In this document: in pieces, positions 1,431-33,334 of the stretch
How positions within the stretch are numbered: position 1 is the stretch's first letter
Layout: every line of letters begins with the position of its first letter
Assembly (NCBI RefSeq): GCF_002285435.1
Contig: NZ_NSBT01000037.1
Location: forward strand, 1,006,313 to 1,070,312
DNA from: Actibacterium ureilyticum
Lineage (GTDB): Bacteria; Pseudomonadota; Alphaproteobacteria; Rhodobacterales; Rhodobacteraceae
Direction of reading: 5' to 3'
Length of the DNA: 64,000 bases
Made by a program: the position numbers and the translations under genes
The notes under the pieces: model-generated
What the model was told of the DNA's origin: nothing
What the model saw: only the letters and a program-made list of their open reading frames with translations
Databases searched by the model: none

Positions 1431-2575
1431 GCCGCCCCCCGTACAGATTGCGCCATCGGATATTGCGCCAGGAACCGCGCCCGCAGGATCAGCACCCACA
1501 GCACCACCGCACCCAGCTGGTGGGTGATCGCGATATGCCATTGGGCCGAGTTCATCACCGTCACGATCCCCAGAACCACCTGCCCGAACAGCAGCGCCGC
1601 CATCCAGTCGAATGCCGTCCTGGTCGCGCGATTGCCGCTCTTGCGCGCCCGCCGCCAGGTCACGATCCCGAAGATGAACAGCAGATAGCCCGCCATCCGA
1701 TGCATGAACTGCACCAGCCCGTCATTCTCGAAAAAGTTGCGCCAAAGCGGGCTCAGCCCCAGCGGCTCGGGCGGCAGAAAGCCCCCCGCCATCAGCGGCC
1801 AGTCGATATAGTTCCGCCCGGCATCGATCCCGGCCACCAACGCCCCCAGCAGGATCTGCAGGAACGCCAGATGCATCACCCCGGTCGACATCGAAAACAG
1901 CTTCGCCTCGCGCCCGCGCCGGGCCTGCATCAGCGCCGCCTCGGGCCGCGCCAACAGGAACACGTACCACGCGATCAGCCCCAGAATGGCAAAGGCCAGC
2001 CCCAGATGCGTGGCCAGCCGGTAAGATGCCACATCCAGCATCTCGCCCCCCAGGCCCGAGCTGACCATCCACCAACCGATCGCACCCTGCAAACCGCCCA
2101 GCACGCCCAGCCCCAGAAGCCGCCCGGTCCAGCCCACCGGGATCCGCTTGGTGAGCCAGAAAAACAGGAACCCGACGGCCCAGACCAGCCCGATCACCCG
2201 GCCCAGCTGCCGATGACCCCATTCCCACCAATAGATCGACTTGAACTCTGCCAGCGTCATCTGGTGGTTCTGCAACTGGTATTCCGGGATCTGCTTGTAC
2301 TTATCGAACTCCACCTGCCAATCGGCCGCCGACAGCGGCGGAAGCGCCCCGGTCACGGGCTTCCATTCGGTGATCGACAAACCGCTATCGGTCAGCCGGG
2401 TCAACCCGCCCACCAGGATCATCGCGACGACCAGCGCAAACACCACCATCAGCCAGACACGGATCGCCCCCCGCGCCCCCCGGCGCGCCCGGTCGATCCC
2501 CCCCGCCTGCGGCGTGGGCGGGACTTGGGCTTTCTCGGCCCCGACCTCTTCAAAAATACTGCGTTTCTGGCTCAT
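1427..2575 (-). CDS. ctaA: Heme A synthase (COX15/CtaA)
   Basis: ORF 1427..2608 is a polytopic membrane protein with CtaA-like conserved His-rich TM segments. The start was chosen at MSQKRS (2575), which has a GGAAGG RBS 8 nt upstream. Confidence 0.8.
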   Translation of the reverse strand: MSQKRSIFEEVGAEKAQVPPTPQAGGIDRARRGARGAIRVWLMVVFALVVAMILVGGLTRLTDSGLSITEWKPVTGALPPLSAADWQVEFDKYKQIPEYQLQNHQMTLAEFKSIYWWEWGHRQLGRVIGLVWAVGFLFFWLTKRIPVGWTGRLLGLGVLGGLQGAIGWWMVSSGLGGEMLDVASYRLATHLGLAFAILGLIAWYVFLLARPEAALMQARRGREAKLFSMSTGVMHLAFLQILLGALVAGIDAGRNYIDWPLMAGGFLPPEPLGLSPLWRNFFENDGLVQFMHRMAGYLLFIFGIVTWRRARKSGNRATRTAFDWMAALLFGQVVLGIVTVMNSAQWHIAITHQLGAVVLWVLILRARFLAQYPMAQSVRGAA

Positions 2576-30540: not shown

Positions 30541-30560
30541 TCACCAACGGAACTTTGCCC

Positions 30561-30956
30561 GTGAACAAAGACCCATCGCTGAACATCCTGGGCACCGCAC
30601 TGGCGCCCTGTTCGACCGCCCCGATGACCGGCTATTTCCGCAACGGCCATTGCGACACCTGCGCCGAAGACACCGGCAGCCACACGGTCTGCGTCGTGCT
30701 GACGGCCGAATTTCTGGCGTTCTCGAAATATGTCGGCAACGATTTGTCGACCCCGCGCCCCGAAATGCGCTTTCCCGGCCTCAAGCCCGGCGACCGCTGG
30801 TGCCTGTGCGCCAGCCGGTTCCTGCAGGCGCATGAAGAGGGCTGCGCGCCGCGTGTCGATCTGACCGCCACCCATCAGCGGGCGCTGGAGATCGTGCCGA
30901 TCGAGGTTCTGAACATGCATGCGGCGGATCGTCTGGACCCCTCGACCGGCGCTTGA
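30561..30956 (+). CDS. DUF2237 family protein
   Basis: NILGTALAPC...GYFRNGHCDTCAEDTGSHTVCVV matches the DUF2237 Cys-rich signature. GTG start; lies 20 nt after the anti-sigma stop. Confidence 0.65.
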   Translation: MNKDPSLNILGTALAPCSTAPMTGYFRNGHCDTCAEDTGSHTVCVVLTAEFLAFSKYVGNDLSTPRPEMRFPGLKPGDRWCLCASRFLQAHEEGCAPRVDLTATHQRALEIVPIEVLNMHAADRLDPSTGA

Positions 30957-31430: not shown

Positions 31431-32576
31431 TCAACCTTGGCGCAAGCGCACCAGATCGCTCATCAGCCCTTCGGTCCCGTTGTGAACCGTCAGCTGATCG
31501 ACCTTGCCGGCGATGGTTTCCAGCGCCTCCAGCTCTTTCAGGCGCAGCATCACCGGGTTGTCGGCCATGACCTTGGCCGTGTTCAGAAGCGACCGCGTTG
31601 CGTTCGTTTCCTCGCGGCGCCGGATCACGTTGGCCTCGGCCTCTTTCTGGGCCTCGACCACCTGGTTCAGGATCGCGCGCATCTCGCCCGGCAGGATCAC
31701 GTCCTTCAGGGCGATCTCGCCGACCTCGATCCCGATCCCGGCCATTTCGGCCCGCACGGCCTGGGCCGCCGCGACATCGACCGACACCTTGTCGGCCAGC
31801 AGCCGGTCCAGCGTCAGCGCCCCCAGCGTCTTGCGGAACGCCAGTTGCAGCGCGCGGTGCAGCGCCTCGGCGAAGTCGGCCACCGCCGTGACCGCCCGCA
31901 GGGGATCCGTGACACGATAGGTGGCCGACAGGTTCACCCGCAGCGACACGCGGTCGGCTGTCAGGATCTCCTGGCCTGTCACCTCCTTGGTCTGCCAGCG
32001 GGTATCCACCAGCCGGATCAGATGCTTGCGCCCCAGGTTCCAGAACCAATAGGTCCCGGCGGGCAGCACCCGGGTCTGCACCCCGTCGACCGACAGGATC
32101 CCGACCCGGCCCTCGGCGATCTCGGCGCTGGTCATCTGCGCCACCAGCCCCGACCGCATCAGCCGACGCGCCAGCACAGGCGGCACCGCATGGTCCCCCG
32201 CGACATCCAGACGCTCCACCATCCAGCGAGCGGCATCGGTCCAGACGACCCGGCGGGTGTCCTGGGTGATGACCGCGAACGCCCGGCCGTCGCGATACAG
32301 GATCGCGATCTCGTCGGCGCCGGTCTCGACCACCGTCAGATGGGTTTCGACCAGGTCGGGGCGTTCCCGCAGAAGCGCATCTTCATAGACGCTTTCGAAA
32401 CGCGGAGTGTTCAGATCAAACAGGGTCACCTGCACGTCCCGGCGCGGCATCCGGTGTTCGCCGGGGCCAAGGATCGTGTCGAACCGCCCCTTGCGCAGCA
32501 CCAGGGCACGCTGGGTTTCGGTCAGGGTCAGGCGCTGCTTTTGCAGCAGAAAATCAACGATACGTGTCATGATCAT
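31431..32576 (-). CDS. SPFH/band-7 (slipin/stomatin-like) family protein
   Basis: 381 aa from MIMTRIVDF behind a perfect GAAGGAG RBS; band-7 domain and C-terminal coiled coil. Confidence 0.8.
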   Translation of the reverse strand: MIMTRIVDFLLQKQRLTLTETQRALVLRKGRFDTILGPGEHRMPRRDVQVTLFDLNTPRFESVYEDALLRERPDLVETHLTVVETGADEIAILYRDGRAFAVITQDTRRVVWTDAARWMVERLDVAGDHAVPPVLARRLMRSGLVAQMTSAEIAEGRVGILSVDGVQTRVLPAGTYWFWNLGRKHLIRLVDTRWQTKEVTGQEILTADRVSLRVNLSATYRVTDPLRAVTAVADFAEALHRALQLAFRKTLGALTLDRLLADKVSVDVAAAQAVRAEMAGIGIEVGEIALKDVILPGEMRAILNQVVEAQKEAEANVIRRREETNATRSLLNTAKVMADNPVMLRLKELEALETIAGKVDQLTVHNGTEGLMSDLVRLRQG

Positions 32577-32978
32577 CACTCCTTCATTCGTTTCGTCATC
32601 GTCGTCGCAAGATGCGATCTCCTTTGGTTTCAGGGGGTTGCGCCGTGTGGCGACAGGTGTGTGACCAAGGCGGGATTGCCATGGGCGGAAATGTGACAGG
32701 CGCCGGGGCCGCCCCACGCCAAAGCCCTGCGCGGGATGGGGGCGAGCGGGGCGCGGGCCACGGGGCGCGCCATCGGGCAAAGCCGTCAGGCGGGCCAAAG
32801 GCCGGCGGCACCATCATCCCCCGCTCCGGCTCAGGGCCAGAGCAGCGGCGGGCCGTTGCCGCGCACCCCACGGGGCGCTTGGCGCGGAACCACCCCTGCT
32901 GGGGCAACCCCGGAGCCCGAATTTTGAACCGTTTGCGTACGGTCCGGCTTAAAAGGCCGGTGCTGCTGTCGCAGCGAA

Positions 32979-33052
32979 GTGCAAAGACGGGAGTCGAACC
33001 CGTGACAAATCGAGCCTGAATCGATTGCTCTACCAGACTGAGCTACGTTGCG
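32979..33052 (-). tRNA. Atypical tRNA-like gene: class-I cloverleaf with anticodon CAG (Leu codon CUG) but no long variable arm; two acceptor-stem mismatches; possible pseudo or unusual tRNA
   Basis: D-arm GCTC/GAGC, anticodon stem ATCGA/TCGAT with loop TTCAGGC, T-arm ACGGG-TTCGACT-CCCGT. Acceptor CGCAACG vs CTTTGCA. No encoded CCA. Overlaps the next tRNA by 2 nt. Confidence 0.45.
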
Positions 33053-33123
33053 GTTTTGGAAGGACTCGAACCTTCGCCCACAGACCCAAAATCTGTTGCT
33101 CTATCCAACTGAGCTACAAAACA
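33051..33123 (-). tRNA. tRNA-Gln (anticodon TTG), no encoded CCA, U1.C72 terminal mismatch
   Basis: D-arm GCTC/GAGC, anticodon stem ACAGA/TCTGT with loop TTTTGGG, T-arm GAAGG-TTCGAGT-CCTTC, acceptor TGTTTTG/CAAAACC. Confidence 0.65.
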
Positions 33124-33334
33124 CCCGAACAGATCGAAACCGGCCCAGGCATACGGGGCTGGCAGCGCCGCCCGCACCGGCAGAGTGATCACCTCTGGCC
33201 GCTTGGGTCCGGTCCGTTTCGGCCGGGGCTGCTGAATACGGCGGGTGCGGGGATTCGTTCAACCAAACGGTTAAGCGTCAAATCGGCCTGTGGCGCGGGC
33301 GCAACAAAATTACCCACCTACGCAACAATCGAAA

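Follow-up and report, generated by a model that had tools for sequence, protein, structure and literature searches.

The window analysed here, a stretch of 64,000 nucleotides from Actibacterium ureilyticum, carries two abutting tRNA-like cloverleaves between trpB and a gene for an SPFH/Band-7 protein. ARAGORN called them on the minus strand as tRNA-Gln(ttg) (33050..33123) and a class-I tRNA-Leu(cag) (32979..33052), with three coordinates in common. The generic tRNA model of Rfam (RF00005) scored domain 1 at 59.3 bits and domain 2, taken alone, at 54.0 bits; domain 2 is hidden in whole-window RF00005 scans because overlapping matches of the same clan are removed. The MFE structure is a cloverleaf for both halves, in agreement with the ARAGORN calls, and the minus-strand pair of tRNA-Gln(TTG) and class-I CAG cloverleaf described in the original prediction is therefore real. 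Read along the minus strand, the features of the locus are as follows:

33233..33262, minus strand: candidate sigma-70-like promoter, picked by eye (TTGAAC at 33262..33257, 18-nt spacer, TATTCA at 33238..33233)
33140..33212, minus strand: 5' three-way-junction domain, from the MFE fold of 33136..33216
33051..33123, minus strand: tRNA-like domain 1 (ARAGORN tRNA-Gln(ttg), RF00005, MFE fold, covariation)
32982..33050, minus strand: tRNA-like domain 2 (ARAGORN tRNA-Leu(cag) at 32979..33052, RF00005 when scored alone)
32944..32975, minus strand: two hairpins just 3' of domain 2, GCUGC-GACA-GCAGC (32975..32962) and CCGGC-CUUUUAA-GCCGG (32960..32944)
32699..32918, minus strand: structured spacer domain specific to Rhodobacterales, with a closing stem of GGGCUCCGGGGUUGCCCC (32918..32901) and GGGGCGGCCCCGGCGCC (32715..32699) that encloses two branches
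32596..32624, minus strand: Shine-Dalgarno sequence AAGGAG and candidate mini-ORF TTG CGA CGA CGA TGA (32610..32596; M-R-R-R-stop)
31431..32570, minus strand: SPFH/Band-7 gene ("slipin family protein", 379 aa; Pfam Band_7)

Domain 1 possesses D-, anticodon- and T-arms and an acceptor (UGUUUUG/CAAAACC) of 6 bp with an unpaired 1.72 position (U1.C72) and G73, and CCA is not encoded after it. Domain 2 follows directly, with no spacer. Its acceptor (CGCAACG/CUUUGCA) contains two mismatches, and the short acceptor CAACG/CUUUG consists of four Watson-Crick pairs and one C.U. The D-stem is GCUC/GAGC, the anticodon stem AUCGA/UCGAU with the loop UUCAGGC, and the T-arm ACGGG/CCCGU; the variable region is 5 nt long and position 73 is C. 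The mismatch and missing CCA of domain 1, as well as the arms, variable region and acceptor mismatches of domain 2, had been described correctly before. Three readings had been offered for them, namely a decaying tRNA or att remnant, a suppressor or recoding tRNA, and a tRNA-like regulatory RNA. The last proved essentially right, and the other two were not supported.

If the domains were genuine tRNAs, they would represent a tRNA-Gln(UUG) and a class-I CAG tRNA that decodes or recodes CUG. As happens in mitochondria, they would be processed from a dicistronic precursor in which their ends overlap. Both pass the generic model and are called by ARAGORN, and both have 7-nt loops with U33. A two-cloverleaf covariance model (R1), built without the window, also gives real tandem tRNAs similar scores. 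R1 had been tried as a membership test and was dropped as a discriminator because real tandem tRNAs score similarly or higher (132 bits for genuine Thr-Met tandems, 110.9 bits for the window). Bacterial tRNA-Leu, however, is a class II tRNA with A73, and the U1-A72 pair serves the recognition of tRNA-Gln, for which G37-G38 is atypical. A domain 2 with a 5-nt variable arm and C73, and a domain 1 with U1.C72 and G37-G38, thus argue against genuine tRNAs, as do the missing spacer, the short acceptors (6 bp and 4-5 bp) and the invariant linkage to SPFH described below. Mischarging of a CAG tRNA would, moreover, cause errors at the Leu codon that is most frequent in a genome with ~65% GC.

The comparison with other genomes points in the same direction. 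The abutting pair was found in Alpha-, Beta- and Gammaproteobacteria and in Bacteroidota, and the RNA class is possibly also present in Firmicutes. The contig scan behind this sample relied on a junction pattern that was too permissive and picked up many ordinary tandem tRNAs as well as YrlA loci; copies in which the second D-arm is complete are over-represented in the sample. Helix covariation was assessed across 26-31 homologues. In the MAFFT alignment, 91.9% of cells pair versus at most 49.8% with the partners slid, with double changes in 21 of 32 pairs; in the model-guided alignment, 95.9% of cells pair versus at most 44.5%, with compensatory changes in 31 of 39 pairs. The anticodon-like stem of domain 2 is 99-100% paired and all five of its pairs covary, and 16 different loop triplets occur among the 27 homologues with 7-nt loops. 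The loop of domain 1 measures 7 nt in only 11/31 homologues and ranges from 2 to 7 nt, with loops of 2-6 nt, tetraloops included, in other lineages; over both domains of the homologues, loop lengths are 2-8 nt.

The CAG species, which the original prediction had suggested comparing across Rhodobacterales, is not conserved there. Orthologous loci in sister genera are called as Thr(tgt), Asn(gtt), Lys(ttt), Leu(tag), Ile(tat), Ser(gct), undefined, or Leu(tag)+Met(cat). Judged from these alignments, the "anticodon" of the tRNA-like domains is arbitrary and under no decoding constraint, and we consider genuine tRNAs very improbable. The original prediction had itself named ordinary tRNAs, recognised by covariance-model scoring, as the outcome that would speak against it. 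Formally this holds by half, because the generic tRNA covariance model accepts both domains, but the comparative data say that they are not ordinary tRNAs.

The original prediction leaned towards an integration remnant because of the adjacent "islet". Accordingly, the cloverleaves would be a decaying duplicated tRNA or an attB/attL remnant that borders an integrated element at 28.2-33.1 kb. The GC content of the cloverleaves (0.48-0.54) is below that of the surroundings, the 5' halves of domains 1 and 2 are 77% alike over 35 nt, and the nearby genes for an ECF sigma factor, an anti-sigma factor and a TPR protein change position between genera. These three genes are, however, the only variable part of the supposed accessory islet. 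The order trpF-trpB-RNA-SPFH-DUF2237 is kept in several genera of Rhodobacterales, and trpB-RNA-SPFH(-DUF2237) synteny holds across the Rhodobacterales loci that were fetched. The "slipin", which had been counted as islet cargo, is instead a conserved gene that invariably accompanies the RNA in lineages from Alpha- to Gammaproteobacteria. A direct repeat of the tRNA 3' half had been suggested as a sign of integration, but neither tRNA half is directly repeated anywhere else in 26.5-34.5 kb, and no integrase domain was found among the Pfam-scanned ORFs of 26.9-38.1 kb.

Decay is likewise at odds with the conservation of the element, since covariation of the stems is its opposite. The cloverleaf element is identical to that of the nearest relative (145/145, zero substitutions), while the neighbouring coding sequences differ by 3-4%. 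The whole trpB-SPFH gap is more conserved than these flanking genes in the same relative (intergenic region 98.1% identical, versus 96.3% for the SPFH coding sequence and 97.2% for trpB). Identity and covarying helices together indicate, at the level of sequence, that the tRNA-like element is more than a product of chance. The oddities that had been taken for decay (U1.C72, missing CCA, a class-I body with a Leu anticodon, a weak second acceptor and a 2-nt overlap) turned out to be traits of the family: acceptors are 6 bp in domain 1 and 3-5 bp in domain 2, overlap and mismatches are family-wide, and the 1.72 position of domain 1 is unpaired in 14 of 29 homologues. A decaying tRNA or att remnant is hence exceedingly improbable.

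The RNA lies directly upstream of a constant partner gene. In 28 of the 30 double-element loci among the matches listed, the window included, the next gene on the same strand belongs to one SPFH/Band_7 family, and the two exceptions are loci cut off at the edge. Nine Rhodobacterales loci were additionally fetched via the protein, which provides an unbiased check as the RNA was not used for selection; in each of them a tRNA-like element is called 400-500 nt before SPFH. In other lineages the SPFH genes downstream of the RNA are full-length orthologues with 38-57% identity. The protein of the window is a 100% match to an Actibacterium ureilyticum protein. In it, a beta-rich N-terminal extension of ~180 aa precedes the SPFH domain, and a long helix forms the C-terminal part. 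No transmembrane segment was apparent when the sequence was read, and the protein is probably soluble. NCBIfam yielded only sub-threshold HflK/C matches for it, and PADLOC has no model for it. Its AlphaFold2 model (pLDDT 84.8) was matched by Foldseek to stomatin, HflK/C, prohibitin and major vault protein. The partner is thus confidently modelled as sharing the architecture of the ring- or cage-forming proteins stomatin, HflK/C and major vault protein.

The gene for the RNA ligase RtcB follows SPFH in gammaproteobacterial, betaproteobacterial and Bacteroidota loci. By tblastn, RtcB and Rsr are absent across the 64-kb window, which also contains neither RtcR nor RtcA, and RtcB was found neither in the nine Rhodobacterales loci nor in the Bradyrhizobium/Mesorhizobium loci. 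Because RtcB is missing from these alphaproteobacterial loci, its linkage is frequent but not universal in the assembled set.

Upstream of domain 1 lies a further conserved domain, a 5' three-way junction with a closing stem CCGGACCCA/UGGGCCGG, a P2 hairpin (CAGAG..CUCUG) and a near-invariant P3 (CCGGUGCGGGCGGCGCUGCC..CGUAUGCC). RNAalifold on 11 Xanthomonadales sequences independently gives the same architecture, and the outer stem and P2 covary. The profile of the Rhodobacterales 5' block matches Xanthomonadales loci with E down to 1e-9. A profile built from Xanthomonadales only has its best match in the window at the expected place (33141..33183), albeit a weak one (E 0.075). The shared junction occurs only at SPFH-linked loci; as a family feature it was derived in this analysis and not from the literature. 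The candidate promoter occupies a position that is conserved in the aligned intergenic regions of Rhodobacterales, and gammaproteobacterial homologues show a sigma-54-like TGGCnnCAGCCGGCAAT at the equivalent place. A consensus promoter and terminator scan of 32.5-33.6 kb called neither.

The region 3' of domain 2 is also structured. The fold of 32940..32980, which covers the two hairpins, has z = -4.05, and 0 of 200 shuffles were as stable. Other lineages have hairpins at the same position, and no U-tract follows those of the window. Every lineage has a spacer of 250-440 nt between RNA and SPFH. For eight Rhodobacterales spacers RNAalifold returned 64 pairs, 29 of them with compensatory changes. 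The candidate mini-ORF ends 25 nt before the SPFH start and overlaps a small conserved hairpin (UCGCn-nnn-nGCGA). Together with its Shine-Dalgarno sequence it is invariant in the window and six related Rhodobacterales loci, with a stop that varies between TGA, TAA and TAG, and it is in frame also in the divergent Rhodobacterales loci L128 and L129. In five confident genes CGA accounts for 2 of 146 Arg codons (1.4%). CGACGACGA has one occurrence in the window.

These observations bear on a role of the RNA in cis. Together, the 5' junction, the tRNA-like domains, the structured spacer and the mini-ORF could make up a regulatory 5' UTR of ~650 nt that controls SPFH synthesis and has no trans-acting role in a ribonucleoprotein (RNP). 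It might act through RNase P/Z cleavage at the tRNA mimics, or through ribosomes that stall at the three rare CGA codons if tRNA-Arg runs short or is damaged. This would fit the scan, in which no terminator was called between the RNA and SPFH, the spacer found in every lineage with its fold conserved in Rhodobacterales, the invariant Shine-Dalgarno sequence and TTG-CGA-CGA-CGA-stop shortly before the SPFH ATG, the rarity of CGA, and the conservation of the whole gap above the flanking coding sequences. The structured spacer and the possible mini-ORF even suggest that the RNA might serve mainly in cis regulation. Both the spacer sequence and the mini-ORF are, however, confined to Rhodobacterales, and their profiles gave no match in other lineages. 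The tRNA mimics and the 5' junction span phyla, so that the universal function should lie with them. CCA is encoded after the acceptor in ~20/31 domain-1 copies, where it mimics a mature tRNA end and thereby suggests a released, protein-bound RNA, and the positional equivalence with Rsr-YrlA likewise argues for an RNP. We therefore regard an exclusively cis-acting leader as rather unlikely. The two explanations are compatible and not mutually exclusive.

According to our analysis, it is very likely that 32979..33123 is the core of one non-coding RNA of an SPFH-linked tRNA-mimic family and does not encode decoding tRNAs. The RNA would extend roughly over 33212..32944, with the 5' three-way junction, two head-to-tail tRNA mimics and the terminal hairpins, and it is most likely co-transcribed with the SPFH gene. 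Such an RNA, the b7a-tRNA, was predicted by Burroughs & Aravind (Nucleic Acids Res 2016). As quoted in 10.1101/312249, the Band-7 protein and b7a-tRNA adjoin RtcB and are interchangeable with Rsr and YrlA. The b7a-tRNA has been linked to RNA repair and is a predicted analogue of the Ro60-Y RNA. In 2018 its existence was given as unvalidated (10.1101/312249). Our literature searches found no experimental follow-up on the b7a-tRNA. The window RNA is a new member of this predicted class. As a whole, an RNA of the b7a-tRNA class encoded just before its obligate SPFH partner is our best explanation, to which we assign a probability of about 0.7.

We posit more tentatively, at slightly less than even odds, that the SPFH protein would serve as the scaffold of a ribonucleoprotein. 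The tRNA-shaped domains might be freed from the operon transcript or left attached to it. By binding to the SPFH oligomer they would build a particle comparable to that of Ro60 and its tRNA-like Y RNA, YrlA. Mimicry of tRNA may then recruit, or compete with, tRNA-handling enzymes or damaged tRNAs in RNA-damage responses. Many Gamma- and Betaproteobacteria would link the module to the RtcB ligase, while Actibacterium and other Alphaproteobacteria would use the RNA-SPFH pair alone. For the window the link to RNA repair is an extrapolation only, because RtcB and Rsr are missing across its 64 kb. A bolder and quite improbable extension would be a Ro- or vault-like RNP that monitors tRNA integrity, for example against Arg-specific anticodon nucleases of the colicin D type, independently of RtcB in Alphaproteobacteria. 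It would combine the probably soluble, cage-forming SPFH protein with a large multi-domain RNA made up of the 5' junction, the two mimics and the hairpins, joined in Rhodobacterales by the 220-nt structured domain and the rare-codon M-R-R-R leader peptide.

The class is of practical relevance for annotation. tRNA finders label these elements tRNA-Gln, -Leu, -Lys and so forth with arbitrary anticodons, and such calls could make tRNA gene sets too large or otherwise misleading and give rise to mistaken claims of "recoding" or "pseudogenes". Rfam 15 holds no model for an SPFH-linked tRNA-like RNA; a dedicated model that draws on the 5' junction and on the SPFH neighbourhood would remedy the misannotation. 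Biologically, the class pairs a tRNA-mimic RNA with a scaffold from the SPFH family, whose proteins are otherwise seen as organisers of membranes. The core-genome copies of marine Rhodobacterales, which lack RtcB, indicate that the RNA-SPFH pair is a conserved unit by itself, and its function is therefore broader than assisting RtcB. The candidate mini-ORF with its invariant CGA triplet offers a handle on a possible link to tRNA-Arg status.

Compared with the b7a-tRNA as it is described by citation, the window likewise shows tRNA-like cloverleaves beside a Band-7/SPFH gene and an anticodon that is not conserved. Its SPFH gene is orthologous to those beside RtcB in Pseudomonas, Xanthomonadales and Burkholderiales; in P. 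aeruginosa, the SPFH gene PaFlo8 lies within the rtc locus. In contrast, the pair of the window stands alone in a trpB-SPFH-DUF2237 neighbourhood, with no RtcB, RtcA or RtcR within 64 kb. The window and the examined homologues further have a tandem of two mimics with a 5' junction and 3' hairpins, and domain 1 of the window is not followed by an encoded CCA, unlike that of about two thirds of the homologues.

YrlA, the bacterial Y RNA that binds Ro60/Rsr (RF02553), is similarly a tRNA-mimicking non-coding RNA beside the gene of a scaffold protein. The SPFH-linked RNA fills the same operon slot before rtcB, as illustrated by locus L073 (RtcR / Rsr / YrlA / RtcB), and the T-loop and D-loop consensus sequences are common to both. 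The window RNA could even be taken for a YrlA-type RNA, as RF02553 matches across the junction of the two domains (33001..33097; 31.6 bits, E 8e-5) and true YrlA loci are matched by the same DNA pattern. The match lies far below the gathering threshold of 69, however, and only reflects the order of T-arm, short linker and D-arm across the junction. YrlA has a single, circularly permuted tRNA-like domain that is closed by the helix to which Ro60 binds, whereas the window holds two complete, unpermuted cloverleaves. Because each of them has a complete D-arm, T-arm and closed anticodon stem, the RNA is not a permuted tRNA closed by such a helix, and the strands required to pair (UCUGU and AUCGA) are not complementary. 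The neighbours are trpB and SPFH, and tblastn with the Rsr of L073 found no Rsr/TROVE gene in the window. The partner is thus SPFH instead of the TROVE/vWA protein of YrlA, and a YrlA-type RNA is almost certainly not what the window encodes.

Genuine tandem tRNAs, such as actinobacterial tRNA-Thr/tRNA-Met and Firmicutes tRNA-Arg/tRNA-Pro, resemble the element in having two cloverleaves 0-4 nt apart and score equally on R1. Unlike the element, they keep their anticodons across taxa, have 7-bp acceptors and lie in tRNA/rRNA clusters, with no SPFH gene or 5' junction. The eukaryotic vault, composed of major vault protein (MVP), vault RNA and the TROVE protein TEP1, offers a further parallel. As modelled, the SPFH partner would share with the cage-forming MVP an SPFH-type 'shoulder' domain and a long helix, aligning to MVP chains over 430-480 columns in Foldseek (E ~1e-11), and both systems would include a small structured RNA.

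According to our analysis, the element at 32979..33123 on the minus strand mimics tRNA with two domains, is maintained by selection and is accompanied by a conserved 5' domain. With a probability of about 0.9, we identify it as an RNA linked to an SPFH/Band-7 gene (31431..32570, minus strand) and not as decoding tRNAs. The RNA unit extends past these coordinates, within which the original prediction had placed two overlapping tRNA-like genes. The features of the locus are as follows:

33140..33212, minus strand: 5' three-way-junction domain, from cross-class conservation and fold
33050..33123, minus strand: domain 1, called tRNA-Gln(ttg) by ARAGORN
32979..33052, minus strand: domain 2, called tRNA-Leu(cag) by ARAGORN
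32699..32918, minus strand: structured spacer with a conserved long-range fold (RNAalifold) in Rhodobacterales
32596..32624, minus strand: SD and candidate mini-ORF, AAGGAG-N9-TTG CGA CGA CGA TGA (M-R-R-R-stop), 25 nt before the SPFH ATG
30555..30956, plus strand: DUF2237 gene, next to the SPFH gene and convergent with it

ARAGORN reported four tRNA-type genes in the window, two being ordinary class-II tRNA-Ser and two the units of the predicted pair, whose existence is thereby confirmed. Each domain folded into a cloverleaf by itself. On the Rfam tRNA model, domain 1 reached 59.3 bits and domain 2, unreported in whole-window scans, 54.0 bits when scored alone, so that it was merely dropped there as an overlapping match of the same clan. 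Reading of the sequence agreed with the earlier description: domain 1 has the U1.C72 mismatch and no CCA; domain 2 combines flawless D-, anticodon- and T-arms with a variable region of 5 nt, the anticodon CAG and an acceptor that shows two mismatches when forced to 7 bp. These "defects" are present in the window, but they are not signs of decay, since mismatch and weak acceptor are characteristic of the family. In 14 of 29 sequences, domain 1 has no pair at position 1.72, which makes its acceptor effectively 6 bp long, and an encoded CCA follows this domain in ~20 of 31 copies. The acceptor of domain 2 has only 3-5 bp among family elements, and the supposed 2-nt overlap of the units is therefore an artefact of forcing 7-bp stems.

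The structure of the double cloverleaf is under selection, while decoding is not. In a MAFFT alignment of 26 elements, with the structure set by the row of the window, 91.9% of cells were paired as against at most 49.8% with partners slid, both-sided changes occurred in 21 of 32 pairs, and the observed pairing values were reached by none of 500 shuffles. A model-guided alignment of 31 elements, itself tilted towards the structure, gave 95.9% against at most 44.5%, with 31 of 39 pairs compensatory. The loop of domain 1 has 7 nt in only 11 of 31 sequences and 2-6 nt in the remainder, including GAAA and GUGA tetraloops; that of domain 2 has 7 nt in 27 of 31 and presents 16 different triplets, which differ even among close relatives (GTT or TTT in Bradyrhizobium, TTT or GTT in Luteimonas). 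The CAG species is not conserved in Rhodobacterales, where the "isotype" differs between genera and the orthologous element reads Gln, Thr, Asn, Lys, Leu, Ile, Ser, undefined, or Leu+Met. Two real tRNAs, as named by ARAGORN, are a highly improbable reading of these loops and triplets. ARAGORN isotypes for SPFH-linked elements include Ser, Leu, Pro, Lys, Phe, Asn, Asp, Met and others, with class-I "Ser" and "Leu" among them (for example at loci L046, L052, L083, L089, L109 and L129). Arbitrary-anticodon calls of this kind may find their way into genome annotations as spurious tRNA genes.

Species-representative genomes were scanned with a degenerate junction-spanning pattern, which was too loose. 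Three kinds of loci appear among the matches listed: tight tandem tRNAs (ordinary Thr-Met in Actinobacteria, Arg-Pro and Gly-Pro in Firmicutes), true YrlA RNAs (L012 and L073, both over the RF02553 threshold), and abutting double cloverleaves with arbitrary or undefined anticodons, carried among these matches by Xanthomonadales, Pseudomonas, Thiothrix, Bradyrhizobium, Mesorhizobium, Roseibium and several MAGs. When all ORFs of 30 double-cloverleaf loci and the window were clustered, 28 of the 30 loci had a member of one protein family as the next gene downstream on the same strand, the sequence of the other two ending at the locus edge. This family is the SPFH gene of the window. Pfam confirmed Band_7 in Pseudomonas, Bradyrhizobium and a gammaproteobacterial MAG, and identified RtcB as the gene after SPFH in four gammaproteobacterial loci. 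Over their full length, a ~150-aa N-terminal extension included, the SPFH proteins of other loci share 38-57% identity with the window's, and in all nine loci gathered via the protein a tRNA-like call lies 400-500 nt upstream of SPFH. The tRNA mimic with its 5' domain is obligately linked to one SPFH subfamily.

Y RNAs adjoin Ro60/Rsr. Across the junction of domains 1 and 2, a YrlA match (RF02553) scored 31.6 bits against a gathering score of 69; we rejected this identity, as the match is below threshold and merely reflects the order of T-arm, short linker and D-arm. Neither Rsr nor RtcB genes were found in the 64-kb window by tblastn, and a Y RNA is a most improbable identity for the element. 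In a tblastn census of all comparison loci, the non-canonical matches split cleanly into Rsr(+RtcB)-linked and SPFH(±RtcB)-linked groups, the latter also holding Burkholderiales, Bacteroidota, a deltaproteobacterium and a Lachnospiraceae MAG. The SPFH-linked RNA and Rsr-YrlA are interchangeable in the operon position before rtcB. In L058, a Burkholderiales MAG, Rsr and an SPFH orthologue both lie within 8 kb, in line with reports that the two scaffold systems are occasionally mixed. L012 (Novosphingobium) carries two tandem YrlA copies (1584..1709 and 1719..1831), both over the Rfam threshold.

The block upstream of domain 1 is common to Rhodobacterales and Xanthomonadales (nhmmer, E 1e-9). 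For 11 Xanthomonadales, RNAalifold independently predicted a three-way junction, both cloverleaves and downstream hairpins; window positions 33136..33216 fold to the same junction, and two very stable hairpins lie directly 3' of domain 2 (z = -4.05). Inside the junction domain, CCGGUGCGnGCGGCnnUGCC..GCGUAUGCC is near-invariant. The domain, for which there is no Rfam family, also precedes domain 1 in L042, L057, L041, L047, L050 and other loci, and is common to Alpha- and Gammaproteobacteria and restricted to SPFH-linked loci. Across ~1 Mb (window plus loci), a Xanthomonadales-only profile scored significantly at SPFH-linked sites only; its hit at 33141..33183 is weak (E 0.075), but is the window's best match and lies at the expected position. 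In gammaproteobacterial L042, L041, L050, L039 and L057, a sigma-54-like TGGCnnCAGCCGGCAAT stands ~25 nt upstream of the 5' block, in keeping with RtcR control. In its stead, a TTGAAC-N18-TATTCA-like stretch is conserved in Rhodobacterales (window 33233..33262, where the promoter scan called no promoter), which suggests that loci without RtcB/RtcR have changed their regulation.

The partner SPFH protein gave a confident AlphaFold2 model (pLDDT 84.8; 94.4 for the N-terminal 185 aa alone) with three beta-rich repeats, an SPFH domain and a long helix; no hydrophobic segment was noticed on reading by eye. As no terminator was called between the RNA and the SPFH gene, we infer that the two are probably co-transcribed. 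We tentatively posit that the RNA could form an RNP with the oligomeric SPFH scaffold, and that its tRNA shape might recruit, or compete for, tRNA-handling or RNA-repair factors.

In every lineage, the SPFH start comes after a spacer of 250-440 nt. That of the window, ~400 nt between tRNA-like module and SPFH, is lineage-specific in sequence and is not junk: in Rhodobacterales a long closing stem (32918..32901 with 32715..32699) surrounds two branches, with compensatory changes in 29 of 64 predicted pairs. The SD and TTG-CGA-CGA-CGA-stop are invariant in the window and six related Rhodobacterales loci, the stop varying between TGA, TAA and TAG, and the candidate mini-ORF is still in frame in the divergent L128 (TTG CGA CGA TGA) and L129 (TTG CGC GCA TGA). 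CGA accounts for 2 of 146 Arg codons (1.4%) in five confident genes, CGACGACGA occurs once in the window, and the mini-ORF overlaps a small conserved hairpin. The SD/CGA stretch is a candidate leader peptide or RNA structure; a function as sensor of tRNA-Arg(ICG) status is speculative. The structured spacer and rare-codon mini-ORF favour the main rival, a purely cis-acting regulatory leader, which we consider unlikely and which does not exclude an RNP.

Upstream of the element, rpsA, ihfB, trpF and trpB lie on the same strand, as does the downstream SPFH/Band-7 gene, whose product is 100% identical to the Actibacterium ureilyticum "slipin family protein". The view of this neighbourhood as an accessory islet left by integration did not hold. 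No direct repeat of a tRNA half was found in 26.5-34.5 kb, the Pfam-scanned ORFs from 26.9 to 38.1 kb contain no integrase domain, and the order trpB, ~770-nt gap with the RNA, SPFH is kept in six of eight related loci gathered via SPFH orthologues, with DUF2237 nearby in five. DUF2237 is convergent beside SPFH in most Rhodobacterales loci (L121, L124, L125, L126, L127, L129), often followed by DUF2332; only the ECF sigma/anti-sigma/TPR trio, located between the two in the window and L127, changes place between genera. Compared with the nearest relative, a locus whose SPFH protein is 96% identical to the window's, identity is 98.1% across the trpB-SPFH gap and 145/145 in the cloverleaves, against 96.3% in the SPFH coding sequence and 97.2% in trpB. 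An att remnant thus has hardly any probability left, and the element is neither a recoding tRNA nor a mobile-element scar. Domain 2 is labile within Rhodobacterales: the window, L127 and L129 have the full cloverleaf and Marimonas (L124) an enlarged version, and only a small hairpin and the T-arm are left in Profundibacter, Tateyamaria, Litoreibacter, Ascidiaceihabitans and Actibacterium sp. 188UL27-1. Domains 1 and 2 of the window share 77% identity over 35 nt of their 5' halves (family D4), possibly a trace of a duplication that partly regenerated one of them.

The window RNA belongs to a known but obscure, experimentally unvalidated class, the band-7-associated tRNA-like RNA (b7a-tRNA) predicted by Burroughs and Aravind (2016) and summarised by Wang et al. 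(bioRxiv 10.1101/312249). In that preprint, the b7a-tRNA/Band-7 pair is described as sometimes swapped with Rsr/YrlA and as lacking experimental validation at that date. We found no later experimental work on b7a-tRNA in the literature, and Rfam 15 holds no family for the SPFH-linked double-cloverleaf RNA. A 2026 paper places the P. aeruginosa SPFH gene PaFlo8 inside the rtc locus and leaves the RNA unmentioned. This RNA-protein module is widespread and without experimental study, and tRNA finders call arbitrary-anticodon tRNA genes in it. Its tandem architecture, its 5' junction and, in Rhodobacterales, its core-genome setting without RtcB may be additions to what has been published on the class.
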